Shown here piece by piece: positions 28 to 60,427 of a stretch of DNA of 64,000 bases. The DNA comes from a virus (taxonomy: Duplodnaviria; Heunggongvirae; Uroviricota; Caudoviricetes), in IMG/VR virus record IMGVR_UViG_3300036945_000242, positions 1 through 64,000 of that record; one strand, given 5' to 3'. Each line of letters opens with the position of its first letter. Positions within the stretch are counted from its first letter, which is position 1. Both the position numbers and the translations under genes were made by a program. Under the pieces are notes generated by a model, which ran no database searches, was not told the DNA's origin, and worked only from the letters and a program-made list of their open reading frames with translations.

Positions 28-102
28 TGGCACCGCTTACAGGAATCGAACCCATATTCACTCTTTAGAAGAGAGTTGTATTATCCGTTATACGAAAGCG
101 AT
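28..102 (-). tRNA. tRNA-Arg (anticodon TCT)
   Basis: Cloverleaf folded by hand on minus strand: acceptor ATCGCTT/AAGCGGT, D-stem GTAT/ATAC, anticodon stem ACTCT/AGAGT with loop CTTCTAA, T-loop TTCGATT, 3' CCA encoded. Confidence 0.6.
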
Positions 103-108
103 AAAACT

Positions 109-183
109 TGGTGGGTCAGGTGAGAATTGAACTCACGGTCAACCGATTATGAGTCGGACGCTTTACCATTAAGCTACTGACCC
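109..183 (-). tRNA. tRNA-Met (anticodon CAT)
   Basis: Acceptor GGGTCAG/CTGACCC, D-arm GCTTAATGGTAAAGC, anticodon loop CTCATAA, T-arm GTGAGTTCAATTCTCAC, CCA encoded. Confidence 0.6.
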
Positions 184-189
184 TAAAAC

Positions 190-277
190 TGGCGGATAGT
201 ATAGGATTCGAACCTATGCGCCCCTTTCGGAACGTCAGTTTAGCAAACTGATGCCTTAACCGCTCGGCCAACTATCC
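190..277 (-). tRNA. tRNA-Ser (anticodon GCT), long variable arm
   Basis: 88 nt. Acceptor GGATAGT/ACTATCC, anticodon stem TCAGT/ACTGA with loop TTGCTAA, long variable arm, T-arm ATAGGTTCGAATCCTAT, CCA encoded. Confidence 0.55.
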
Positions 278-285
278 TAAAACTA

Positions 286-360
286 TGGTAACGCATAGCG
301 GAATCGAACCGCTCTTGCTGGGATGAAAACCCAGTGTCCTAACCGATAGACGAATGCGTC
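286..360 (-). tRNA. tRNA-Glu (anticodon TTC)
   Basis: Acceptor GACGCAT/ATGCGTT, D-stem GTCT/GGAC, anticodon stem CTGGG/CCCAG with loop TTTTCAT, T-arm AGCGGTTCGATTCCGCT, CCA encoded. Confidence 0.55.
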
Positions 361-369
361 ACTAATACC

Positions 370-1011
370 TTATAAACTATTAACTTTTCTACCCCTAACC
401 CAACCGTCTAATATAGGGGCATCTTTCTTAATTTTTTTATTATCAATTCCGTTAGTAATCCACATAGTACCATATTGGGAATTATTTAGTGGGTTACTTA
501 ATCTTTCTTTTGCTTTATCAGAAACTTTCTTTTTAGTTTCTTCTGTATGATGTTTACCTAAAAAACTTATTTTACCAGCAGATAAAAATTCCTTTGGTGT
601 TCCGTGTAATTCATACGCTTTACGACCACCCTTTTTAGCCCATTCTTTTAATAAATTCGGATATCTATCATTCGTAGTTTTTCTAGCCTTTTTGTTTTTC
701 AATATACGAGCTTCTACATCGTTATTGATATAATCCCAACACCCTTGTCCTCCAGGTTTAAGGTTATACGTGCTACTATTAGCAACAAATTCTTCATTAA
801 CAATCTCTACTTCTTTCAAATACATTTCTTCAGGATTGTCAAATATGAATAATATTTCTTTAGTAAAATTTTCAATACCATATTTTAATATGTCACTTTT
901 TAGTTTTTTACTCGAACCCATATACGAGTCGTGTATATTGTCTGTTTTATGAACTCCTACGTAGATTCTTCCATCAATATTATTTGTTATTTTATATGTC
1001 GTATAAAACAT
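370..1011 (-). CDS. GIY-YIG homing endonuclease (Seg-like) inserted in tRNA cluster
   Basis: N-terminal GIY-YIG motifs (YKITN...GRIYVGVH...YMGSS). Located between tRNA genes as T4 segB is. C-terminal basic NUMOD-like region. Confidence 0.6.
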   Translation of the reverse strand: MFYTTYKITNNIDGRIYVGVHKTDNIHDSYMGSSKKLKSDILKYGIENFTKEILFIFDNPEEMYLKEVEIVNEEFVANSSTYNLKPGGQGCWDYINNDVEARILKNKKARKTTNDRYPNLLKEWAKKGGRKAYELHGTPKEFLSAGKISFLGKHHTEETKKKVSDKAKERLSNPLNNSQYGTMWITNGIDNKKIKKDAPILDGWVRGRKVNSL

Positions 1012-1035
1012 ATCACCTCAAAACGTATAAAGGAT

Positions 1036-1106
1036 AGCGGATAGGGAGAATCGAACTCCACTCTGCACAGCTTGGAAGGCTGGCGACACACCTTGTGCTT
1101 ATCCGC
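1036..1106 (-). tRNA. tRNA-Gly (anticodon TCC)
   Basis: Acceptor GCGGATA/TATCCGC, anticodon stem CAGC/GCTG with loop CTTCCAA, T-loop TTCGATT. No CCA encoded. Some non-canonical pairs. Confidence 0.5.
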
Positions 1107-1179
1107 AAAAACTAATCATACCCAACAAAGTCTCTACGAGTTTAACCGTAAAGGGGAGGGTATTATAAAATAAAAAGAG

Positions 1180-1251
1180 TCTGAGAGGCAGGAATCGAAC
1201 CTGCACTTCTGGTTTCCAAAACCAGATGACTAACCGTTATCCTACTCTCAG
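1180..1251 (-). tRNA. tRNA-Pro (anticodon TGG)
   Basis: Acceptor CTGAGAG/CTCTCAG, anticodon stem CTGGT/ACCAG with loop TTTGGAA, T-arm GCAGGTTCGATTCCTGC. Confidence 0.55.
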
Positions 1252-1258
1252 AAAAACT

Positions 1259-1337
1259 TGGTTGCCAAGGTAGGATTCGCACCTACGATCTCCAGCTTAT
1301 GAGACTGGCGGGGACGACTAGACTCCCCTACTCGGCG
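1259..1337 (-). tRNA. tRNA with CAT anticodon (Ile2-lysidine type or second Met)
   Basis: Anticodon stem CCAGT/GCTGG with loop CTCATAA, T-arm GTAGGTGCGAATCCTAC, CCA encoded. Acceptor stem has one mismatch. Confidence 0.45.
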
Positions 1338-1345
1338 ATAATAAT

Positions 1346-1424
1346 TGGCTCCGTATCTGGGAATCGAACCCAGCTAATCATTGATTAACAGTCAAGTCCT
1401 TGCACCATGCTTGGATTCTACGGA
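1346..1424 (-). tRNA. tRNA-Asn (anticodon GTT)
   Basis: Acceptor TCCGTAG/ATACGGA, anticodon loop CTGTTAA, T-arm CTGGGTTCGATTCCCAG, CCA encoded. Confidence 0.5.
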
Positions 1425-1580
1425 ATAAAATTTGTATTAAGAACTATACTACCAAAACGTCCTTAGCTTGTTTTACAATACCCGAACCTAGCATCTTTAC
1501 GACCCAGACGTAATATCTTTACAACGCTCGACTTTAATGTCTACCCGATTGTGCACGTAGTATAGTTTTTAATATAAATT

Positions 1581-1656
1581 TGGCATCGCAGGTAGGAATC
1601 GAACCTACAACCTTCGGTTTTGGAGACCGACGCTCTGCCAATTGAGCTACTGGGAT
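1581..1656 (-). tRNA. tRNA-Trp (anticodon CCA)
   Basis: Acceptor ATCCCAG/CTGCGAT (one mismatch), D-stem GCTC/GAGC, anticodon stem TCGGT/ACCGA with loop CTCCAAA, T-arm GTAGGTTCGATTCCTAC, CCA encoded. Confidence 0.6.
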
Positions 1657-1696
1657 ACATATAAACTATTTGGAGCGACACAACTATAATACATAT

Positions 1697-2221
1697 CTAT
1701 GTAGATAACTTTCCAACAACACCTTTACCACACCACGTGTCTGTCTGAGAATGGCAGTTTGGACACATAAGTCTTAAATTGTGTTTTCTATGGTCAGAGT
1801 TATCGCCATTAATATGATCAAGTTGTAAAGAAAGTTCTTTACCTTGCCAATTACTAATACTACAAATAGAGCACTTATAGTCAATAACTGATTCTTTAAT
1901 CATCCTTTTCTTTAGCTTCAGTGTTTGATAATAGGGATGCAGACCATCAAGAATCTCATCAAGAGGTATCTTTGGTTGGTTACCGCCACCACTTCCAAAT
2001 TCTAAACCTAAAACCTTACATTTTCTCCATATTTGTATTATTGGAACTTTGAATTTAGCAGACAGTTTACCTAGATGCTTTTCTTCAGTATAAGCAGCAA
2101 TCAATTCTATATCTGTAAACTTGTTTCTAACTTGTTTCATTTTAACCACTCCCCCATCTATCCAATAAAAACCATATAAAAACACACTACCAAGAGCACC
2201 CCGATTAGTTATGTCGGTCAA
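1697..2221 (-). CDS. HNH homing endonuclease
   Basis: C-terminal HNH motif LQLDHINGDNSDHRKHNLRLMCPNCHSQT. Sits inside the tRNA cluster. Confidence 0.6.
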   Translation of the reverse strand: MTDITNRGALGSVFLYGFYWIDGGVVKMKQVRNKFTDIELIAAYTEEKHLGKLSAKFKVPIIQIWRKCKVLGLEFGSGGGNQPKIPLDEILDGLHPYYQTLKLKKRMIKESVIDYKCSICSISNWQGKELSLQLDHINGDNSDHRKHNLRLMCPNCHSQTDTWCGKGVVGKLST

Positions 2222-2265
2222 ACGCTCACTCAGGTAACTACATCCTAAGGGAATGTGTTTTTATA

Positions 2266-2339
2266 TGGTGCCCCTCGACAGAATCGAACTGCCATAATCG
2301 GATTACAAAACCGACGTAATACCATTATACGAGAGGGGC
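2266..2339 (-). tRNA. tRNA-Thr (anticodon TGT)
   Basis: Acceptor GCCCCTC/GAGGGGC, D-arm GTATAATGGTATTAC, anticodon loop TTTGTAA, T-arm GGCAGTTCGATTCTGTC, CCA encoded. Confidence 0.55.
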
Positions 2340-3390: not shown

Positions 3391-4280
3391 TAAAATTCCT
3401 CTAACTCAGATAATAGTAAACGACAGCGGTTTTCAATCAAGTAATTCATGATTGACATTTTATCGCCGACAACGTTATAATTTTGGTAAGCGTCTACGAT
3501 TTTAGAACTTACTTCTACAGGTATATAGTCAAAATCAATTAACCTTACATTACGAGACCAATTACGTCGTTCTTCGTCATTAGCACAAGCTTCAAAACCC
3601 TTCTCCATAAACTCAGCTAAGCGTTTAGCGGTAACGGGTTTTTGACGCTCGCCCTTTACAAATACATCATCCGCTGACAAGATATTAGGAATACCGTCAT
3701 CCCCCGCCTTTACCACGTGAGTAATGTACTTTTCGTGTAACTGGGCTTTGTTAGCTGTTAAGCGTTTCTTCATATAGGGCGAGTACTGATCAACGTTCGA
3801 GAACTTTTGTAATTGAATAAAGTCAGCGTCCGAAGATAAGATAATAACCTTTTGCGGTTCAGATTCTAAACCAACTTGGATTAAATTGTTATCTTGTGAC
3901 CACTTAGCTAATACCGCAATCACATCATCCGCTTCGGCTTCGTTAATGTGAATAACCTTATAAGGAAAGTGTTTTTGTAAATCATCACGAATCTCCGATA
4001 GCGTATCAAAGATAAGTTTCCAATTTAAATCAGACTGTTCTCTGGACTTTTTACGCCCAGCCTTATAGTGTTCAAACACTTCTTTACGCCAGTATTTTCT
4101 ACCGTCGCAACAAATAACCAATTCACCGTATTCTTTACCGTATTTTTTCTTATACGCTTTTAGAGTTGATAAAATTGAGTGACGGATAAGGTTCTTAACC
4201 TCACTCTCCGTACCTTGTAATTCTCGTTTGAAAGAAAGTATAGACGCCAAGGCTACTTGGCTATAATCTGCTAATATCAT
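3390..4280 (-). CDS. rnh: RNase H / 5'-3' flap exonuclease
   Basis: Matches remembered T4 RNase H (DYSQVALASIL vs DFSQIALSTAL; EADDVIAVL vs EADDHIAVL). Size 296 aa vs 305 aa. Confidence 0.8.
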   Translation of the reverse strand: MILADYSQVALASILSFKRELQGTESEVKNLIRHSILSTLKAYKKKYGKEYGELVICCDGRKYWRKEVFEHYKAGRKKSREQSDLNWKLIFDTLSEIRDDLQKHFPYKVIHINEAEADDVIAVLAKWSQDNNLIQVGLESEPQKVIILSSDADFIQLQKFSNVDQYSPYMKKRLTANKAQLHEKYITHVVKAGDDGIPNILSADDVFVKGERQKPVTAKRLAEFMEKGFEACANDEERRNWSRNVRLIDFDYIPVEVSSKIVDAYQNYNVVGDKMSIMNYLIENRCRLLLSELEEF

Positions 4281-9732: not shown

Positions 9733-11658
9733 TTATAAGGTTACTTCACAAGCACCGCCTGCGCAAGCTACTTGGTCGTTTAAATTGGTATTGTCTTCTA
9801 ACTCAAGAACTAAGTCTAAGTTAATATCGTGTAAATGGGTAAGCATTGATTCAAATACTTCTTTAGTACAGTCCTCAAACGGGGCTTGTACGTAAGTACC
9901 GTTATCATAAGGAAGTACAGAAATACCCGTATATGAATCACGGTTATCCCACATCCACTCACCCACAGTTTCCCACTCGGTATCTCTTACGGAAATTGTA
10001 CAAGATACGTTATGGTGGTTTGAACCTGAGCGATACCCGTTATGAACCCAATCAATATTAAAACGTTTAACCCTTTCTAATAGGCTTAAGGCTGGCTCGG
10101 TACGTAAAATTGAACCAATAGGAGCAGCTTGAGGGAAACTCATTACCGCTTCTAGATGAGGCTTAAATTTACAATCTTCAATAAGGCTTGGGAAATTGTC
10201 GTTCATATATTTGAAGAGCGGTTCGTTTTTACCGACACGCATTCTACGAATATAATAATCGTTATGCCAAGCATGGATACCTGAAGCTGAACCTACCGTC
10301 AAGGAAGAAGTACCAGAAGGCTTAATACAAGTAGTACGAACCGCTGGGTTGATACCGATTAAGGCTGCAACTCTAGCATTTTCTTCTTTAACAATTTCAG
10401 CAGCTTGAACTAAATCAAACGGTAATACCTTACCTGAACCAATACCCGTTAAACCAACACCAATCAAAGCGTCTTCTTCCGTATTTTCACGCCATTGTGG
10501 ACGTAAATAATGGAAGTTAGTATAACCCGCTTGTAAAGTACCTAAGAACGATGCAGCTTTAACTCTAGCATTTAAATCTTCTTGACTCTTAACGTCATCA
10601 ACGTTGGTTTCAGTCAAGTTACAAAACTGCATATTCTTAAGCGAAATTTCACAACAAGGGTTAGTACCAATATCGTAGTCGTTAGTCCAGAAGAATCCTG
10701 GCTCGCCAGAACCTGAATCTTTCACTCGTTGCCAAATATCTTTGAACTGGTCTTCGCTAACTACACCACGCTTTAATACTACTGAGTTATTGGCACGACC
10801 ACGTTGTGGGTTTAATTCCCACCAAGCACCCGATTTACAACCCAACATATCCATATCTTCAATACTGAATAAGGAGATTAAAGCCGCACGTCTAATACCG
10901 CCCGATAAAACAGCGTCCGCTACGTGACACATGATATCGTGGGCTTCTAGTGAACTCAACTTACGACCTACCGAATTATTCAATACCGCACGAATGTGGT
11001 CAAGACAAATACGCAACGGGTCAGGTCCAGGAGCTTTACCACCGCTGGTAATAAGGCGTGAACCTTTTTGTCGAATATCACGGAAGTCAAACTCAGGGTC
11101 AGATTTACCTTCAAAATAGGCACGTACCAAAATACGAACCGCATCAGCCCAACCCTCAATAGAATCGCCTACTAGGTAACGTCTAGAGCGTTTAATAGGT
11201 CCAACCACTAAAGGAAGCTTATCTACGTGAGGTTTCTGAACTGAAAAACCAACGCCTGAACCGCCTAGTAAAAGGAACATAGCTTCCCAAAAAGCCGCAG
11301 GATTATCTACCGCTACGTAAGCGCAGTTAAACATTCGGTTATTGGCTAACTCAATAGGGCGACCACCGAATTGCATAGAACGCATAGACGGTAATACTTT
11401 TTTAGTCTTAACGAAGTCGGTGTATAATTGTTTAATTTCTTTTTCTAGATGCGGGTATTTTAAAATATGCATACTAGCGTTACGGTCACACAAATCGTCC
11501 CAGTTTTCTCTACGGTTTAATTCTGGGATAAATTTAGCATACTTATTGAATACGGTAATATTAGATAAAATTCTTTGCGATACATCCATTTTTATTTTAG
11601 CTTTCTTGTTTGTTAATGTTGTTGATAATAGGAAATAACTTTGCGATAACCTTAGCAC
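9733..11658 (-). CDS. ribonucleotide reductase catalytic subunit, probably class II (adenosylcobalamin-dependent)
   Basis: Finger-loop motif TNPCCEISL, C-terminal redox Cys pair (ACAGGACE), about 620 aa with no ATP-cone. Likely start M24 near 11589. Confidence 0.65.
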   Translation of the reverse strand: MLRLSQSYFLLSTTLTNKKAKIKMDVSQRILSNITVFNKYAKFIPELNRRENWDDLCDRNASMHILKYPHLEKEIKQLYTDFVKTKKVLPSMRSMQFGGRPIELANNRMFNCAYVAVDNPAAFWEAMFLLLGGSGVGFSVQKPHVDKLPLVVGPIKRSRRYLVGDSIEGWADAVRILVRAYFEGKSDPEFDFRDIRQKGSRLITSGGKAPGPDPLRICLDHIRAVLNNSVGRKLSSLEAHDIMCHVADAVLSGGIRRAALISLFSIEDMDMLGCKSGAWWELNPQRGRANNSVVLKRGVVSEDQFKDIWQRVKDSGSGEPGFFWTNDYDIGTNPCCEISLKNMQFCNLTETNVDDVKSQEDLNARVKAASFLGTLQAGYTNFHYLRPQWRENTEEDALIGVGLTGIGSGKVLPFDLVQAAEIVKEENARVAALIGINPAVRTTCIKPSGTSSLTVGSASGIHAWHNDYYIRRMRVGKNEPLFKYMNDNFPSLIEDCKFKPHLEAVMSFPQAAPIGSILRTEPALSLLERVKRFNIDWVHNGYRSGSNHHNVSCTISVRDTEWETVGEWMWDNRDSYTGISVLPYDNGTYVQAPFEDCTKEVFESMLTHLHDINLDLVLELEDNTNLNDQVACAGGACEVTL

Positions 11659-12287: not shown

Positions 12288-13331
12288 TTAACATTTCCGC
12301 CAAGTGGCGAATTTCAATTTAGCTTCTATTCCTGTAAAGGTATTCGTATTTATAAGGTTTATAATCTCATCTGACGTATAACCTAATAATATTAAATCGT
12401 TAATATCCTTAGCATCAACGCTATCCGGAAACATACAAACTTTATAATCCGAGTCAATATATTTCTTTAACTGTTTTACAATATCCTTATTTCTAGGCTC
12501 ATTATCCATAACCAATGTACAATTAGCTTTTAAGCTCCTAATTATAGGGGTATCAAAACTAGCACCCGAAACCGCAATAGCGTTAGGTAAAAATAACGAA
12601 TCAATTGGTCCTTCAACTACATAAATTGGTTTAGCGTAGTTTACTATATCTAAACCGTAAATCTTTTCTTGTACGTCGTCAATCTTTACAGTAAGATACT
12701 TAGGCGTTTCATCCCCATACGCTCTACCCTGATAGGCGAATACCTTACCGTGATTATTATAAAAGGGAATAATCATCCTAGGGTGTTCAAATTGAATCGG
12801 CTCAGGAAAGGTTTTTTTACCCGTCGACCAATTTACATAAGCCTTAAACTTAGGCGCAAAATACAACCGACCCCAAGCACTCTTAGGTATTTTACGCTTC
12901 TCTACGTACTTAACCGCAGGGTGCGTTGGGGGTAGCTCCGCTATACATACTAAAGGGTCTAGTAAGTCATCGCTAAGTTCTACTTCAACAGGGGGAGTTT
13001 CTACCGTTGTGGGTTCGGTAGTTGGGGTGATGTGGAGTACGTTGCTTTTATACTTCTCAAAAACGTATTCCTTATACAAATAAGAATCTAAATGTTTGAT
13101 TAAGTTTCCAAGATTATTAACGTATCCGCAGTTGTGACATTTAACAAAAAGGTCGCCATTTGACTTATAGATAAAAGCCCTAGCTTTGGTTTTATTAGTA
13201 GAACTATCCCCGCAAATTGGGCAAGAAAAGTTCCACAAATAATCATTTTTTTGCTTAAAGTTTCTAAGCCTATTCGCTATCATACTAACGAATTTCAAAT
13301 CTATATGCATCATATAAAGCCTTAACCTCAA
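12288..13331 (-). CDS. 61: DNA primase gp61-like
   Basis: N-terminal zinc ribbon CPICGD...CHNCGY plus Toprim motif VVEGPIDSLFL. Likely real start MMHIDLKF near 13313 downstream of the promoter. Confidence 0.7.
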   Translation of the reverse strand: MRLRLYMMHIDLKFVSMIANRLRNFKQKNDYLWNFSCPICGDSSTNKTKARAFIYKSNGDLFVKCHNCGYVNNLGNLIKHLDSYLYKEYVFEKYKSNVLHITPTTEPTTVETPPVEVELSDDLLDPLVCIAELPPTHPAVKYVEKRKIPKSAWGRLYFAPKFKAYVNWSTGKKTFPEPIQFEHPRMIIPFYNNHGKVFAYQGRAYGDETPKYLTVKIDDVQEKIYGLDIVNYAKPIYVVEGPIDSLFLPNAIAVSGASFDTPIIRSLKANCTLVMDNEPRNKDIVKQLKKYIDSDYKVCMFPDSVDAKDINDLILLGYTSDEIINLINTNTFTGIEAKLKFATWRKC

Positions 13332-13362
13332 GTAGTTATAACACTTATTATAGCGTAAGGAT

Positions 13363-13380
13363 AGCTGTAAGTAAAGTATT
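13363..13380 (-). promoter_or_regulatory. Early promoter for primase (minus)
   Basis: Minus strand TTTACT-TACAGCTATCCTTACGC-TATAAT upstream of ATGATG. Confidence 0.5.
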
Positions 13381-13408
13381 ATATTTCGTAAAGATTAGGT
13401 AAAGTCGC

Positions 13409-13437
13409 TTGACTTACAAGGCGTACCTTAGTATAAT
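13409..13437 (+). promoter_or_regulatory. Consensus sigma70 promoter on plus strand (TTGACT-17-TATAAT)
   Basis: TTGACT at 13409-13414, 17-nt spacer, TATAAT at 13432-13437. Oriented against all neighbouring genes. Confidence 0.45.
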
Positions 13438-13444
13438 ACCTTTA

Positions 13445-13560
13445 GGTTCTGACTTAACGTTAGTTAAGGCACTGCGTAGCAGTATCTAAGTGAATGTATT
13501 AAACGTATGTATAACAAAACTAAGTCTGTGAGCCTTTGGCTCACCTGCCCGTAGGGCAGT
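13445..13560 (+). ncRNA. candidate structured small RNA / antisense transcript
   Basis: Downstream of the plus promoter. Conserved hairpins CTTAAC-gtta-GTTAAG, CTGC-gta-GCAG, GTGAGCC-ttt-GGCTCAC, CTGCCC-gta-GGGCAG. Duplicated at 48021-48140 with a loop substitution in hairpin 1. Confidence 0.25.
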
Positions 13561-13576
13561 AAGTAAGTGTATAGGG

Positions 13577-14050
13577 TTAGTTGAATAGCTTTGAGAAAGT
13601 GTTAAGGTTACTGAAAAGGAATAGTATAACTGCTACTCCGCCCAGAATATACCAACGCCAAACTTCCAATACGGTAACTCTAGCGTCTAGGGCTTTAAAG
13701 CTATCTTTGTTAGATTTTTCAATATTAAGTATATCGTTCTTAATTTCATTTTGTATTTCTTTGTGTTGCTCTCGAGAAGCTACTGAATTCTCAGCCATTT
13801 TAATTTCAATACCCATTTCCATATCATCTATTTTAGATAATATTTCTTTAGTCTGGGTAGCAATACGAGCATTGATATCTTTTACATCGTCAGTACGTAT
13901 ATCACTTTCTTTTACCAATTGAGTAATTTTAGCGTCATGTACTGCTAACAACTTTCCAATATCGTCGCTCACTTGGGATATCTTTTCCAGTGATTGGTCT
14001 AATTTATTAACTACGCTTTTTAATACTTCTACTTCTGTCTCGAGTGCCAT
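13577..14050 (-). CDS. coiled-coil protein with C-terminal TM anchor
   Basis: 157 aa, heptad-rich, C-terminal hydrophobic helix. Confidence 0.35.
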   Translation of the reverse strand: MALETEVEVLKSVVNKLDQSLEKISQVSDDIGKLLAVHDAKITQLVKESDIRTDDVKDINARIATQTKEILSKIDDMEMGIEIKMAENSVASREQHKEIQNEIKNDILNIEKSNKDSFKALDARVTVLEVWRWYILGGVAVILFLFSNLNTFSKLFN

Positions 14051-22884: not shown

Positions 22885-22898
22885 TTTTAGACGAAATA

Positions 22899-22918
22899 AA
22901 ACCCGCCGAAGCGGGTTG
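22899..22918. terminator. Hairpin terminator (AACCCGC-ttcg-GCGGGTT) with T-rich flanks on both strands
   Basis: 7-bp GC-rich stem with UUCG tetraloop on minus, followed by TTTATTT. Ends the operon 22923-28008. Confidence 0.55.
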
Positions 22919-22922
22919 TTTA

Positions 22923-23465
22923 TTAAATACCTAGATTAGAATTTATATATTGTAAAATGGTAGCTTGGTGTTCTAACGTACAATTATCAAACTCTTGGGT
23001 AAACGCCATATATTCAAAGTTAGAAAGAATATTAGATATTTTAGTATCCCTACCCTTTAAGAACGTTTCCGATTGGTTAGATCCTCTATCTATATACCGC
23101 TGTTTTAAAACGGATTGCGGAGCCTTTAACGCTACGATATTAAATTCGCAATTTGGTAAGGAATACAGGTGGTCGTAGAATTTACCGTTAGTTAGGCGGT
23201 CACCTTCAAAGATAACATTAGAAGTAGTTTCCCGCATAAACTTTTCAGCATTAGGTTGCACACTCATACCCAACCTATCAGTACCCGCAAAAACCTCACC
23301 CTCCTCATACTTACCCAAAACGTATAAGTCTAACGCTTCGCAGTACATAGCGTGAATCATAGGCTCGGGTTCAACCGATTGCCAAGTTTTACCCTCCATA
23401 AATTTACGGAATAACGTAGTTTTACCAGTACCTGGAACGCCACAAACAGCAATAATTTTTCTCAT
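22923..23465 (-). CDS. P-loop kinase (Pnk-kinase/AAA_33-like); candidate DNA or nucleotide kinase
   Basis: Walker A AVCGVPGTGKTT (T4 Pnk has TIGCPGSGKST). Walker B VIFEGD. 180 aa. Last gene of the operon. Confidence 0.5.
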   Translation of the reverse strand: MRKIIAVCGVPGTGKTTLFRKFMEGKTWQSVEPEPMIHAMYCEALDLYVLGKYEEGEVFAGTDRLGMSVQPNAEKFMRETTSNVIFEGDRLTNGKFYDHLYSLPNCEFNIVALKAPQSVLKQRYIDRGSNQSETFLKGRDTKISNILSNFEYMAFTQEFDNCTLEHQATILQYINSNLGI

Positions 23466-35804: not shown

Positions 35805-35841
35805 TATATTATACCCTAAAGCGAGTTGTAAGTAAAGCTAT
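35805..35841 (-). promoter_or_regulatory. Early promoter (ttgtaagtaaag family)
   Basis: Minus TTTACT-TACAACTCGCTTTAGGG-TATAAT. Confidence 0.5.
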
Positions 35842-35848
35842 AAATGAG

Positions 35849-35872
35849 AAAAGCCCTCCGAAGAGGGCTTTT
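35849..35872 (-). terminator. Hairpin terminator after the Hsp20 gene
   Basis: AAAGCCCTC-ttcg-GAGGGCTTT on minus, followed by a U-rich tract. Confidence 0.5.
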
Positions 35873-35886
35873 ATTTAATCTACCGT

Positions 35887-46280: not shown

Positions 46281-47380
46281 ACAAATCCCATGGTTTTCTT
46301 ACGGTTAATACCTTTTTCGGAAGGCTCTAAGTTGGTTTTAGAATTAAAAATCTCAGCAATAGAATAAGGTTTCGATTCATCGGAACGCTCAAATAGCGGG
46401 ATACCTAATTTATCGGCTAATACTTTAGCTTGATCAACGGTTAGGGGCTTAAACTCTAACACGTCGTGGCAACGTCCAGGACGTACCAAAGCAGCGTCTA
46501 CATCAGTGATAGAGGGTAGGTTGGTTGAGAAAATTAGTTTCTTTGAAGAAGAAGCTACCAAACCATCACCAACATTCAAAAACTTATGCATCATTGTATT
46601 ACCTTCAGTTCTTGAACTTAGGAAGTTGTCCGAATCTTCAAGAACCATAACGTTAGTATCAGATTCCAAAAAGCTAGCAAAGAAATTATCTTTAGATAAA
46701 ATATTTGGGTCATAAGTAACGGAAGCCGAAGTTTTACTATGAGCCAATAACCCACGAATAAAGCTAGTTTTCCCAGTTCCAGGAGGTCCGATTAACAACA
46801 AGATATTAGAACTGGAATTCATAAACCTATCGTAATACTCAGTTAAAGGCTCACCTAAAAACGGATACATCTCATCAATAGGTAAACGCTCTACGTTTAA
46901 CGGTGAAGGGAAGTATTCACCGTACTCGGAATATACCCAACGAACCGTAGAACCAACAACATCAAAATCGTTGGTAAACTTAGCTAACGTTTTATGAACC
47001 CAAGAAGGTGTACCAGTAATAGAGATTTTGGAGATTTCATTAGACGATTGAAACGCAATCATTTCAGTACAACCGTTATCTCCGTCAATATTAACAAACC
47101 CCGCAAAATCGCTAGTGAACATAAGCATACTATTTTCATATCGCTTTTCAATATAATCTCGCATAACTTCCTTACTAGAAACCAACTCAACAGTTCGGTT
47201 AATAGTAGGGGTTTTACTAGCTAGACGAGTTTCTAAAACCTTGTTTCTAGCGTACTTGTCGAATACTTCATTGGCTAAGTGTATATTTTGATTGGTCATA
47301 TTATTAAGTGGTAATGATTTAGAAAGTTGTAAAGAACTTTCGTTTGCAAGGTCAGCTATAAGTTTATCAATTTTATTCAA
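46277..47380 (-). CDS. AAA+ ATPase of unknown role inserted between gp55 and gp47
   Basis: Walker A LLIGPPGTGKTS, Walker B VMVLEDSD. 367 aa. No T4 equivalent at this position. Confidence 0.5.
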   Translation of the reverse strand: MNKIDKLIADLANESSLQLSKSLPLNNMTNQNIHLANEVFDKYARNKVLETRLASKTPTINRTVELVSSKEVMRDYIEKRYENSMLMFTSDFAGFVNIDGDNGCTEMIAFQSSNEISKISITGTPSWVHKTLAKFTNDFDVVGSTVRWVYSEYGEYFPSPLNVERLPIDEMYPFLGEPLTEYYDRFMNSSSNILLLIGPPGTGKTSFIRGLLAHSKTSASVTYDPNILSKDNFFASFLESDTNVMVLEDSDNFLSSRTEGNTMMHKFLNVGDGLVASSSKKLIFSTNLPSITDVDAALVRPGRCHDVLEFKPLTVDQAKVLADKLGIPLFERSDESKPYSIAEIFNSKTNLEPSEKGINRKKTMGFV

Positions 47381-47892
47381 ACAAACTCCCCTAGGTCAGT
47401 TATTTGTTGAGTACGCTTTTTACGTTTAACAGCGGGAGCTTCTTGTGGAGGGTTATTTTGCATATACTCAATATAAGTATTTTGAAACACCCCGCCCTCA
47501 TCGTGTTCCTGAAGCTCAAATAAATCAAACGACATATCTTGTATTAGTTTACTTCTAATATAAGATTGTCGTTTTTCTTTGTTTATTCTACGTATAAAAG
47601 CGAAGAATATAACTTGTGTAAAATACGCAAAGGGGTTATCAGACTTATCAGGGTCAAAACTACTAATATATTGAATACAATTTTCAATACCATCGGAAAT
47701 CATTTCATCCCGATAGGAATAGTTTATAAAGTTAGGGCGATAGGAAACCCTAGTTGCTATTAAAAGAATACACTCCCCAATATAATTATTGAGGCGGGGT
47801 TTGCGTAAACCCGCTTCCTCAGCTTCTTTACACTTAAGCTTATATTCTTTTAACGCCTCCAAAAAATCTTTGTTATCTACGTAGTGTGCCAT
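47377..47892 (-). CDS. 55: late-transcription sigma factor gp55
   Basis: NPFAYFTQVIFFAFIRRINKE vs T4 gp55 [21 protein letters not shown]. Confidence 0.75.
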   Translation of the reverse strand: MAHYVDNKDFLEALKEYKLKCKEAEEAGLRKPRLNNYIGECILLIATRVSYRPNFINYSYRDEMISDGIENCIQYISSFDPDKSDNPFAYFTQVIFFAFIRRINKEKRQSYIRSKLIQDMSFDLFELQEHDEGGVFQNTYIEYMQNNPPQEAPAVKRKKRTQQITDLGEFV

Positions 47893-47984
47893 TTTAAAAC
47901 CTTTTATACTTTAATTACCTTTATTATAGTATAAAGTTTATTGTAAGTAAAGTATTATATTTCGTAAAGATTAGGTAAAGTCGC

Positions 47985-48013
47985 TTGACTTACAACCGCT
48001 ATCGCGATATAAT
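47985..48013 (+). promoter_or_regulatory. Consensus sigma70 promoter on plus strand (TTGACT-17-TATAAT)
   Basis: TTGACT 47985-47990, TATAAT 48008-48013. Confidence 0.45.
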
Positions 48014-48020
48014 ACCTTTA

Positions 48021-48140
48021 GGTTGTATTTTATGACTTAACTTTAGTTAAGGCACTGCGTAGCAGCGTTAGAAATAACTGAGTACTAGACTAATAAAAAC
48101 TAAGTCTGTGAGCCTTTGGCTCACCTGCCCGTAGGGCAGT
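48021..48140 (+). ncRNA. candidate structured small RNA / antisense transcript (copy B)
   Basis: Same four hairpins as copy A. Hairpin 1 loop is ttta instead of gtta. Confidence 0.25.
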
Positions 48141-48150
48141 AAGTGAGTGT

Positions 48151-48528
48151 CTAGTGTACTATACGGGGTTGGGTATCTGAAGGTTCTTCTTCTAAGCTTT
48201 CTTCCGTAACGTAACCTTGACTATCTACTGTGGCTGTAACCTTGGTTTCAAACGCTTTAACTAGGTTTAAGTAATGGTCAAGCAACGCTGAGTGTAAATC
48301 TTCCATTATAATAATATGATTAAAGGATATTGTATATTTCTTGGTAGCTGAATATTCACACCAAGGGTTAGCCGATACGGACGGAACTAAATTACCATCT
48401 TCATCTTCCGTATGAAATACCCTAATTAACATAGGATTAGATATTACAACGGTTTCTGAAGGTTTGTTCTCAAGGGTAGCCAATAACTCTTCACCCGTTA
48501 CTAATTTTAAAACAACATATTTATTCAA
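48151..48528 (-). CDS. hypothetical protein (UvsW.1-like position)
   Basis: 125 aa, overlaps the end of uvsW. Confidence 0.3.
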   Translation of the reverse strand: MNKYVVLKLVTGEELLATLENKPSETVVISNPMLIRVFHTEDEDGNLVPSVSANPWCEYSATKKYTISFNHIIIMEDLHSALLDHYLNLVKAFETKVTATVDSQGYVTEESLEEEPSDTQPRIVH

Positions 48529-58216: not shown

Positions 58217-60427
58217 TTAAGCGTTAAGCTCGCTGAAGGAAATACCAGAACGAGTAGCGATAAAGTTCAAAGTAATGAAGTTGATAGCACGGTTCGGTTT
58301 TACGAAAATATCAGCGATAAATTCGTTACGGTCAATAACTTCACCAGTATTGTTACTAGCATCACAACGAACCAAGAACTCAGTAATACCTCTACGACCT
58401 TGTACATCACGTAAGAACGGTTCAACCAAATTCTTAAATTGAGCACGAGTAAACGAATCGTTAAACTCGAATAATTGATACTTAGAAGCGGTAGCGATAG
58501 CTTTTTCTAATACAATAAACAATCTACGAACGTTGATACGATCAAAGGCGGAAGGTTTAGACAAGAGAGTCTTATCACCAAACAATACAGTACCTTGTCC
58601 TGGAAATGTAACCACAGGGTTTACACCGTTTTTATAGAGATTGTCTCTATCGGTTTTTCTAGGATTGTGTGATAACTTGACTACGTTCTTGATTTGACCA
58701 CGGTTTAAACCTCCTGGAGAGAACCAAGGATCGTTAGTGAAGTCGGTACGAGCACATAAACCAGCTACGTCGCCATTTAACGGAACCCAGCGGTATTTGT
58801 CGTTATAACGGTCGTATTGGTATTTGAATCCAGAGTCCATAACCGCATAAGATGTACTTGGTAATTCGTTACGGAAGGCGATGATTTGGTCGGTAGCGTC
58901 AGAACCAGAACCGATGATAATTTCGTTGCTCTCGCTTACAGGGGAAACAAATGCTACGCAATCTTTACGAGCTTCAACCACATTATTGATAATGTAGATA
59001 GCCACAGTAGAAGATACTTTACCCATAGGTAATAAGCTAATATCGTAAAGGCTGTCGTCCGCAAAAGGAGCCCAAGCGTTTTGTAAGTTACCGTCAGTAA
59101 CAGTAAAATCGTCCACACCACCAACTAAAGAACGGCTGATAGCGGTAGTTGCTGATTTAAAGGTAACGCTATTTGCTTCAGAACCCCAAGCTGTACCGCT
59201 AGTCGATAACACTGGGTGATCCATCCACCAAATATACTTAGAACGAGCGTTAAGTACGTTTTTGTAGTAGTTGTTAGTACCGTCAGATTGTCTAGCGTCA
59301 GAAGCTTTAGATACGAATGCGAACTTTTCTAAGATACTACCTCTAGTGCCAGTCCATACACCATCTTCGTCGATAACAATGATATGTAATTCGTCATTAG
59401 AACCGCCAACCGTACTCGCATACTCAGAAGTATTAGGAGCGGTATCGAATTCGTCTCTATAAGCCCATGTAGCGAAACTAGCAGAATCTGCCATAGAAAC
59501 ACGTAAAGAGTTTCCTAAAGTTCCTGGATACTTAGCAGCGAATTCGCCAATTAAGGCTGAACCGTTGATAAAGTTAGTTTCGTAGTCGTCGCTATTTTTA
59601 ATCTTAATACCAACAACAGACGAGATAGTTGCTACGGCTGTAGCTTGCGTAGAAGCTCCACCACCAGCAATCGTAACAGTTGGAGCAGTAGCGTAACCAG
59701 TTCCTGGAGTAACAATAGTAACGCCAGTAATAGTTGAAGTGCCAATAGTAATTGTGCCTGCTGCTGCATTAGATCCGCCTGAGCCAGCATTATTAAAAGT
59801 AACGGTAGGGGCTGAAGTGTAGCCTGAACCGCCATTATCTACGGTGATAGAAGTAACTTGACCTAAAGTCGGGCTTCCTACTGTAGTATCTACAACAGCT
59901 GTACCCGTAGCCGTAACGCCACCCGCTACTTGAGGTGCGCTGAACGTAATAGTTGGGGCTGAAGTGTAACCTGTACCGCCATTCGCAACAGCAACGGTTA
60001 ATACTGGAGCACCAGAACGTACAGCCGTACCAGTAGCATTAACGCCACCATCAGCGTCCGGAGCACTAAAAGTTACGGTCGGTTGGCTAGTATAGCCTGA
60101 ACCCGCTGTACTCATAGTAACACTAGCTACAGAACCAGTTAAAAGCGAAACCGCATTGCGTTGGTTTGTAGTATCGGCACGAGATACTAAAAGGCTATTA
60201 GAGTAAGCTAAGAAATTCGCTGCAGTAAAGAAAGATTGAGCGGTAGCGTCGTTCGGTTTACCGAAACGTTGTACTAATTCATTTTCAGAAGCGATAATTG
60301 TAGGATCCATAACAGGACCCCACTGAAAAGCACCAGCATAAGCACCATTAGAAGTAGAAACGGCTGGGACGATTGACGTCAAGTCCTTTTCTACAATGGC
60401 TACTCCTGGAGATAATTGAAACGGCAT
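58217..60427 (-). CDS. 18: tail sheath protein gp18 with Ig-like repeat insertion
   Basis: N-terminus LSPGV...AFQWGP (T4 has LSPGI...KFQWGP). 736 aa vs 659 aa in T4. Extra length is four ~40-aa repeats GG(S/T)GYTSAPT(V/I)TFSAP. Confidence 0.8.
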   Translation of the reverse strand: MPFQLSPGVAIVEKDLTSIVPAVSTSNGAYAGAFQWGPVMDPTIIASENELVQRFGKPNDATAQSFFTAANFLAYSNSLLVSRADTTNQRNAVSLLTGSVASVTMSTAGSGYTSQPTVTFSAPDADGGVNATGTAVRSGAPVLTVAVANGGTGYTSAPTITFSAPQVAGGVTATGTAVVDTTVGSPTLGQVTSITVDNGGSGYTSAPTVTFNNAGSGGSNAAAGTITIGTSTITGVTIVTPGTGYATAPTVTIAGGGASTQATAVATISSVVGIKIKNSDDYETNFINGSALIGEFAAKYPGTLGNSLRVSMADSASFATWAYRDEFDTAPNTSEYASTVGGSNDELHIIVIDEDGVWTGTRGSILEKFAFVSKASDARQSDGTNNYYKNVLNARSKYIWWMDHPVLSTSGTAWGSEANSVTFKSATTAISRSLVGGVDDFTVTDGNLQNAWAPFADDSLYDISLLPMGKVSSTVAIYIINNVVEARKDCVAFVSPVSESNEIIIGSGSDATDQIIAFRNELPSTSYAVMDSGFKYQYDRYNDKYRWVPLNGDVAGLCARTDFTNDPWFSPGGLNRGQIKNVVKLSHNPRKTDRDNLYKNGVNPVVTFPGQGTVLFGDKTLLSKPSAFDRINVRRLFIVLEKAIATASKYQLFEFNDSFTRAQFKNLVEPFLRDVQGRRGITEFLVRCDASNNTGEVIDRNEFIADIFVKPNRAINFITLNFIATRSGISFSELNA
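59654..60115. repeat. Four tandem ~120-bp coding repeats (Ig-like domains) inside the sheath gene
   Basis: Repeated motif GSGYTS(A/Q)PT(V/I)TFSAP...GGV(N/T)ATGTAV. Confidence 0.6.

Follow-up and report, generated by a model that had tools for sequence, protein, structure and literature searches.

PeSLs (promoter-early stem-loops) are composite intergenic cassettes of T4-like genomes in which a sigma-70-like early promoter has a stem-loop just upstream and is accompanied by a Shine-Dalgarno sequence and a start codon (PMC4122927). They occur in many copies and prefer hyperplastic regions beside indels and gene swaps (PMC2839356, PMC4122927). The replication origins oriF (uvsY) and oriG (34) of T4 consist of a MotA-dependent middle promoter and a directly downstream A+T-rich unwinding element of arbitrary sequence, where the transcript engages in a persistent R-loop (Kreuzer and Brister 2010, PMC3016281). 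Small intergenic non-coding RNAs with a promoter of their own that are directed against the 3′ end of a neighboring gene include CfrI of cyanophage S-PM2 and OOP of lambda (PMC12197685). Besides the antisense RNA CfrI, the cyanophage RNAs that we found described are the Rfam motifs glnA, manA, wcaG and abiF. Here we analyze an intergenic cassette of ~250 bp in a stretch of 64,000 nt from a marine T4-like myovirus (IMG/VR record IMGVR_UViG_3300036945_000242, positions 1 to 64,000; this whole stretch is referred to as the window), which has a G+C content of 38.6% and carries nearly all of its genes on the minus strand. The cassette is present twice, between the genes for the late sigma factor gp55 and a 125-aa protein (copy B) and between those for primase and a 157-aa protein (copy A). 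We favor, with moderate confidence, its interpretation as a duplicated regulatory cassette in which two early promoters lie back to back and the plus-strand one would make a structured non-coding RNA of ~120 nt that is convergent with the upstream operon.

Copy B is a genuine element far beyond what chance would produce and takes up the entire 258-nt gap between gp55 and the 125-aa open reading frame (ORF; 47893-48150), and copy A extends over about 13314-13576. An earlier note on this DNA had assigned copy B to 47935-48150, which is the right place except that the start is displaced inward by ~40 nt and thereby truncates the minus promoter. Alignment of the two copies yields identical blocks of roughly 15-55 nt, interrupted by unalignable stretches that correspond to both promoter spacers and to ~30 nt in the center. 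Read along the plus strand, either copy consists of a promoter on the minus strand, a spacer of 33 nt, a promoter on the plus strand, two hairpins (H1 and H2), a variable center and two G+C-rich hairpins (H3 and H4), the last of which is separated from the stop codon of the upstream gene by 11 nt in copy B and 17 nt in copy A. The earlier note had described the same architecture for both copies, with the minus promoter of copy B driving gp55 and its plus promoter running antisense into the 125-aa gene. Divergent promoters and hairpins are indeed found in both, the minus promoter does face gp55, and the plus promoter is directed against the 125-aa gene, with hexamers that are conserved in every ortholog reaching them. 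Neither motif searches nor a covariance model of the cassette (R1, described below) revealed a third copy in the 64-kb window or in the 10 kb past its high end.

The cassette was not matched by blastn against 50,697 GenBank phages or by five exact or gapped patterns against IMG/VR, and none was detected by blastn or R1 in the region preceding gp55 of the 80 nearest relatives in IMG/VR, which carry a different, shorter element at this junction. A 22-mer derived from H4 retrieved three metagenome contigs that are 75-84% identical to the window, and further copies were retrieved via contigs encoding close homologs of the two upstream neighbors. Eight more full-length copies are thus available from metagenomes, all of them at the same two junctions: five at gp55 (L083, L085, L086, L087 and L090) and three at primase (L084, L091, to which L094 is identical, and L095). 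Each of two further samples holds a copy from either junction (L084 with L085; L090 with L095), and several independent assemblies end within the cassette, as expected of a repeat. A more distant contig, L096, whose neighbor protein is 54% identical, has a plain gap of 53 nt and no cassette at the primase junction, which indicates that the cassette is restricted to a narrow clade and behaves like an inserted module.

The window contains 14 instances of the promoter pattern TTKACTNNCAA-N12-TATAAT, with 0.00 expected; 12 of these lie on the minus strand, which is the gene strand, and the only two on the plus strand are the plus promoters of the cassettes (Table 1). The minus promoter is followed by an AAAGG Shine-Dalgarno sequence and the gp55 ATG at 47892 in copy B, and by AAGG and the primase ATG at 13313 in copy A, and it is kept in the orthologs L083, L085, L086, L087 and L091. 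The plus promoter is found in L083, L085, L086, L087, L090 and L091 with a -35 box of TTGACT or TTTACT, a -10 box of TATAAT and an unchanged spacing of 17 nt; L084 keeps its -10 box only. Its 12 variable spacer bases differ among nearly all orthologs, and the same applies to the minus promoter. Conserved hexamers around a spacer that is free to change are indicative of selection on promoter function rather than of a recent duplication, and the comparison of the orthologs shows the predicted plus promoter to be real. Within the spacer between the two promoters, the motif ATTAGG(G)TAAA (47970-47979 and 13394-13403) is kept in all orthologs reaching it, even where other spacer bases differ, and may serve as an UP element or as the site of a regulator.

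The covariance model R1 was built from ten copies representing about six phage variants, which were then realigned to it; the predicted RNA body of copy A scores 122.7 bits. In the five-helix structure, 96.9% of the cells are standard pairs, compared to 91.7% in shuffled alignments (none of 500 reaches the observed value) and 23-47% when the pairing partners are slid. Seven pairs change on both sides, which is matched in 1 of 500 shuffles, and the covariation score amounts to 0.193 as opposed to 0.087 in the shuffles (0/500). RNAalifold, to which the structure was not supplied, returned the same helices with eight compensatory pairs and an H1 that is longer by two pairs, one of them compensatory. 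A terminal A·C pair of H2 (G·U if read on the minus strand) was discarded once RNAalifold had given the base to this extension of H1, which is compensated in L091. Taken over the aligned copies, these comparisons show that the predicted RNA has a conserved folded structure.

At the level of the individual helices, H1 changes from A-U to G-C in two sequences (CTTAAC/GTTAAG to CTTAGC/GCTAAG) and at its outer pair from U-A to A-U in L091, its loops being GTTA, TTTA, GTA, GAA or TTT. The stem of H2 occurs as CTGC/GCAG, TCGC/GCGA, TTGC/GCGA and TTGC/GCAA. In the relatives H3 comprises 6 bp instead of 7, the inner C and G having been lost jointly, with loops of TTT, AAA or TTC. H4 possesses four pairs with compensatory changes in L090 and L095, and its variants among the relatives are CTGCTCC-GCAA-GGAGCAG, the GCAA loop being that of L090, and CTGACCC-GCA-GGGTCAG. 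The 3′ hairpin motifs CTGCCCGTAGGGCAG and GTGAGCCTTTGGCTCAC are confined within the window to the two cassettes, with 0.03 and 0.06 occurrences expected. The central region measures 40-50 nt over the ten copies and contains 22-34% G+C compared to the 38.6% of the window; the copies are 30-66% identical in this region as opposed to 69-91% in the structured parts. The center of L095 (~1200-1240) additionally harbors a hairpin of 9 bp, AGGTCTAGA...TCTAGACCT, which on the plus strand is preceded by an A7 run; read on the minus strand, this hairpin is a canonical terminator with a 9-bp stem followed by U7. The palindrome ACC-TTTA-GGT shows no covariation that would prove a structure and represents either a 5′ hairpin or an operator-like site.

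Table 1. Positions of the cassette elements and flanking genes in the window.
Feature	Coordinates	Strand	Basis or remark
Copy B minus early promoter, TTTACT-17-TATAAT	47923-47951 (-10 47923-47928, -35 47946-47951)	-	consensus scan, 10/12
Copy B conserved spacer between the two -35 boxes, 33 nt	47952-47984	.	same in copies A and B; includes ATTAGGTAAA at 47970-47979
Copy B plus promoter, TTGACT-17-TATAAT	47985-48013	+	scan, 11/12
Copy B palindrome ACC-TTTA-GGT	48014-48023	+	stems invariant; loop TTTA, or GTAA in L091; spans predicted start
Copy B H1, UG/CUUAAC-loop-GUUAAG/CA	48033-48054	+	stem held in 10/10 sequences
Copy B H2, CUGC-GUA-GCAG	48055-48065	+	two pairs with compensatory changes
Copy B central variable A+T-rich region	48066-48107	+	ends in semi-conserved AAAACTAAGTCT
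Copy B H3, GUGAGCC-UUU-GGCUCAC	48108-48124	+	sequence only in the two cassettes within the window
Copy B H4, CUGCCC-GUA-GGGCAG	48125-48139	+	sequence only in the two cassettes within the window
Copy A minus early promoter, TTTACT-17-TATAAT, for primase	13347-13375	-	scan, 10/12; alignment with copy B
Copy A plus promoter, TTGACT-17-TATAAT	13409-13437	+	scan, 11/12; pattern search
Copy A predicted RNA body	13444-13559	+	H1 13450-13471, H2 13472-13482, center 13483-13527, H3 13528-13544, H4 13545-13559
gp55 late sigma factor gene, target of the copy B minus promoter	47377-47892	-	ORF; phrog_234 'late sigma transcription factor', E 4e-59
125-aa gene, convergent with the copy B plus promoter	48151-48528	-	ORF; stop codon 48151-48153
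157-aa DUF7201 gene, other flank of copy A	13577-14050	-	ORF

A variable center of ~30 nt between conserved hairpins might also be taken for a mimic of CRISPR repeats or a mini-array, in which H2 and H4 would imitate type I-F-like repeats around a spacer-like sequence, and H4 with its flank (TAAG) bears what we take to be a superficial likeness to type I-F repeats. This likeness did not survive the analysis of covariation. The stems of H2 and H4 covary (TCGC/GCGA, CTGCTCC/GGAGCAG, CTGACCC/GGGTCAG), so that it is the structure which is conserved and not a repeat sequence, and mimicry is thereby effectively refuted. The distance between H2 and H4 is 59-62 nt and includes another conserved hairpin, and none of 185,579 bacterial and archaeal genomes (GTDB) contains the 22-mer of H4. 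At the gathering score, Rfam 15 recognizes only tRNAs in the window; at E up to 10, the cassettes match neither CRISPR-DR nor any other family beyond chance hits of 10-16 bits to eukaryotic models for small nucleolar, micro- and long non-coding RNAs. We therefore attach almost no probability to CRISPR mimicry.

The orientation of the plus promoter and two wobble pairs point to the plus strand as the one that would be transcribed. Read on this strand, H2 of L085 and H4 of L087 contain internal U·G wobbles, which become C·A mismatches if the minus strand is read instead, and both are intermediate on a path from C-G via U·G to U-A, the C-G and U-A states of which occur in other sequences. Among the plus-strand loops are some of the GNRA and G..A types (GCAA, GTAA, GTA, GCA and GAA). 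No conserved ORF was found on the plus strand across the cassette copies, and this comparison shows the predicted plus transcript to be without coding capacity. According to our model, transcripts would start at 48020 and 13444, the 7th nt past the respective -10 box, and would end after H4. No intrinsic terminator was called in either copy on either strand: H4 is directly followed by TAAGTGAGTGT and no T-run, and on the minus strand a TTTT(T) run begins 8 nt past H3. A plain intrinsic terminator was hence rejected as an explanation for the hairpins, which lack a following T-run on both strands, whereas the same genome has canonical terminators, stems with a T-run, shortly upstream of other early promoters. 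Among the features of a small regulatory RNA gene, the cassette possesses a promoter of its own, a predicted transcript without coding capacity and a conserved secondary structure.

Several observations weigh against an RNA gene of this kind. The transcript itself is predicted from sequence, and its start and 3′ end are predictions as well. The case for the strand comprises two wobble cells only, and folding of the single sequences gives z-scores of -1.6 and -0.7 for the plus strand compared to -3.6 and -3.1 for the minus strand. The ten copies come from close relatives and provide few independent compensatory events, H3 and most of H1 show no variation, the copies were aligned by fitting them to the structure model, and H4 is invariant in the first three metagenome matches since the search pattern required it. 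There is no intrinsic terminator after H4 or within about 500 nt on the plus strand, so that the RNA could be much longer and represent an antisense transcript of the upstream genes. Between the RNA and the minus-strand phage mRNAs of the window, no perfect complementarity of at least 12 nt was found, and the duplex energies with the gp55 leader (z -1.8) and the primase leader (z -1.1) are not significant; unconstrained duplexfold values were discounted as artefacts of long loops. Two further features of a small regulatory RNA gene, namely a 3′ end defined by a terminator and an identifiable target or partner, were not found.

The better z-scores of the minus-strand folds speak for a different explanation, according to which the cassette is a terminator-promoter unit of the PeSL type on the minus strand that was copied between the two junctions by recombination. 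The hairpins would then be the 3′ untranslated region or terminator of the upstream operon, and the plus promoter would be secondary or incidental. The early promoter, Shine-Dalgarno sequence and start codon that belong to the definition of a PeSL are all present on the minus strand of both copies, and the promoter TTTACT-N17-TATAAT resembles the TTTACW-N17-TAYWAT of PeSLs in T4/PST (PMC2839356, PMC4122927). Like PeSLs, the cassette is a short, repeated, composite intergenic element with stem-loops that is able to appear at a new junction as a module, and the cassette-less relative with its 53-nt gap is in line with such an insertion. The hairpins start 11-17 nt past the upstream stop codons, the center of L095 contains a canonical minus-strand terminator, the same junction carries a bidirectional terminator hairpin in relatives that do not belong to the clade, and elsewhere in the window the early promoters at 35836, 22881 and 2506 each have a canonical terminator 10-20 nt upstream. 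These PeSL-like units, each a G+C-rich stem with a T-run on the minus strand, are located at 35840-35880, 22885-22925 and 2510-2560.

In neither copy, however, does a terminator lie just upstream of the minus promoter on the same strand. H3 and H4 are situated ~160-190 nt and H1 ~80 nt upstream of the minus -35 box, and no T-run directly follows H3 or H4. Instead of one adjoining terminator, the cassette has four covarying hairpins without a T-run at distances of 40-190 nt, and it differs further from a PeSL by a built-in second, divergent promoter within whose transcript these hairpins lie. An explanation based on the minus strand leaves the conserved -35 and -10 hexamers of the plus promoter with their free spacer unaccounted for and turns both internal wobbles into mismatches. 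In contrast to the many PeSL copies in hyperplastic regions, two cassette copies are present in 64 kb plus 10 kb of flank, and these occupy syntenic core-gene junctions and not gene-shuffling sites; at the primase junction, one gain or loss of the cassette is seen (L096). We thus consider it rather unlikely that the cassette is a PeSL-type unit of the minus strand.

From the adjacent primase and UvsW/UvsY genes, the earlier note had inferred a replication-origin function. This inference is not supported, as the copies in the relatives are syntenic and provide no independent evidence: the neighborhood reflects inherited synteny and not an independent association. An origin might nevertheless be imagined in which the transcript of the plus promoter primes the leading strand, either by an R-loop in the A+T-rich center or as a structured primer resembling ColE1 RNA II. 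The hairpins on the displaced plus strand would stabilize the open region; C-GNA-G loops are very stable in single-stranded DNA as well. The plus promoter and its transcript would then constitute an RNA-primed or R-loop origin of this marine T4-like group, the junction promoter being ancestral and having been elaborated and copied beside primase. Such an origin would explain why a strong promoter is present without a gene for it to transcribe, and it fits the presence of two copies per genome as well as an antisense-facing promoter at the UvsW-side junction that is apparently conserved far outside the clade. With oriF and oriG of T4 the cassette shares a promoter with a downstream A+T-rich stretch of unconstrained sequence, here the low-G+C center described above, more than one copy per genome and a location in a region of replication and recombination genes (PMC3016281).

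The promoter is, however, of the early sigma-70 type and not a MotA-type middle-mode promoter, and the A+T-rich stretch begins ~45 nt past the predicted start, with G+C-rich hairpins clamping it. A conserved structure is not required of T4-type origins, and the review of the T4 origins describes no conserved secondary structure (PMC3016281), whereas the four hairpins of the cassette are conserved and kept by compensatory change. The cassette is also missing at the primase junction of the relative L096. The cumulative GC skew is monotonic across both copies without any inflection, although skew is not expected to mark T4-like origins. Both the priming mechanism and the origin as such appear improbable to us; if true, T4 would no longer be the only T4-like phage with a defined origin.

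As a predicted small intergenic non-coding RNA with its own promoter that faces the 3′ end of a neighboring gene, the cassette transcript is comparable to CfrI and lambda OOP. It differs from both in that there is no sequence or Rfam relationship, in its two paralogous copies and in the lack of an intrinsic terminator in the cassette, and its conserved part is intergenic and does not overlap a target gene.

For the gp55 junction outside the clade, we compared the gap just upstream of gp55 (about 141-162 nt) in the loci L001-L070 and in Methylophilales phage Melnitz (L100, 4760-4936). An antisense promoter-like site, TTGCYT-17-(T/C)ATAAT, lies between the Sm-like gene and gp55 in 52 of 55 distinct IMG/VR relatives and in Melnitz, its -35 box sitting in the arm of a palindromic A-run/T-run terminator hairpin. 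It is followed by a conserved motif of ~20 nt, which takes the form of AACC-ATGTCG-GGTTTGAT, AACGGTGTTAGGGTTGAT or CCACAG-TGT-CTGTGG-TTGAT; in relatives including Melnitz, a conserved G-cluster motif comes after the site. The form TATAAT-AACC-ATGTCG-GGTTTGAT resembles TATAAT-AACC-TTTA-GGTTTGA, with which the predicted transcript of the cassette starts. The antisense promoter at the gp55 junction may accordingly be ancestral to this phage family, and the four-hairpin body and the second copy may be innovations of the clade.

In its major capsid protein, the phage shares 67% identity with Melnitz and 62% with Pelagibacter phage HTVC008M. The labels gp55, UvsW and UvsY given in the earlier note hold, the first by its match to phrog_234 (Table 1) and the other two by Pfam, which places the UvsW and UvsY genes after the 125-aa ORF; blastn matches in the gp55 region coincide with annotated late sigma factor genes. 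The designation of the 125-aa gene as 'uvsW.1-like' could not be upheld. Its product has a weak match to PF16243 Sm_like (E 5.9e-6), which is under the Pfam cutoff, matches phrog_471/527/431 and yielded no match in a search of PDB sequences. Of 80 related loci, 67 have a homolog in front of gp55, and the product is a possible RNA-binding protein encoded next to the putative RNA gene. At copy A, which the primase gene (minus strand) adjoins, the primase ORF as called mechanically starts with a TTG at 13331, ~9 nt from the predicted transcript start (window 13308-13331). The likelier start is the ATG at 13313, which follows GAGG...AAGG and gives a protein of 341 aa instead of 347.

Elsewhere in the window, a cluster of eight tRNA genes (Arg, Met, Ser, Glu, Pro, Met, Trp and Thr; 28-2339, minus strand) is broken by a 213-aa ORF (370-1011, minus strand) with a weak match to the GIY-YIG homing endonuclease SegE. 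Four diverged copies of a 41-nt unit at 59670-60109, spaced by 126, 147 and 126 nt (repeat family D4), probably reflect a repeated protein domain of a structural gene. In L091, the gene after thyX (3761-4246) has an Intein_splicing match, which suggests that it contains an intein; its position corresponds to that of a 641-aa reductase-like ORF in the window (9733-11658).

The most fitting description of the element is that of a predicted new structured RNA gene within a bidirectional PeSL-like regulatory cassette. The minus promoter would provide early transcription of the downstream core gene, which is gp55 for copy B and primase for copy A. The plus promoter, which is the better match to the consensus and faces against every gene of the region, would make the ~120-nt RNA with the 5′ hairpins H1 and H2, an unstructured A/U-rich variable center and the adjoining G+C-rich 3′ hairpins H3 and H4. 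Both promoters would be fired by the host RNA polymerase early in infection, and the tandem 3′ hairpins may stabilize the RNA or define its 3′ end. The RNA, or convergent transcription itself, would act at the operon boundary. Transcripts reading through from the upstream middle/late operon could be paired with or blocked there, which would leave gp55 and primase dependent on their own early promoter. We favor a role at the operon boundary since the RNA would be complementary to upstream read-through and since the relatives have, at the same junction, divergent promoters that are separated by a bidirectional terminator. That the RNA acts in trans or binds a protein is about equally possible.

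The cassette RNA is a candidate for a new RNA family with comparatively good support, which would add to the very short list of non-coding RNAs of T4-like marine phages. It would also extend the composite promoter/stem-loop cassettes known from T4-like genomes to bidirectional ones with an RNA gene of their own. Less probably, the cassette may mark a start of replication. With an early promoter that it would give to gp55 and primase and an RNA that would face the UvsW/UvsY operon, the cassette is a candidate for the separation of early from middle/late transcription in these uncultured phages.

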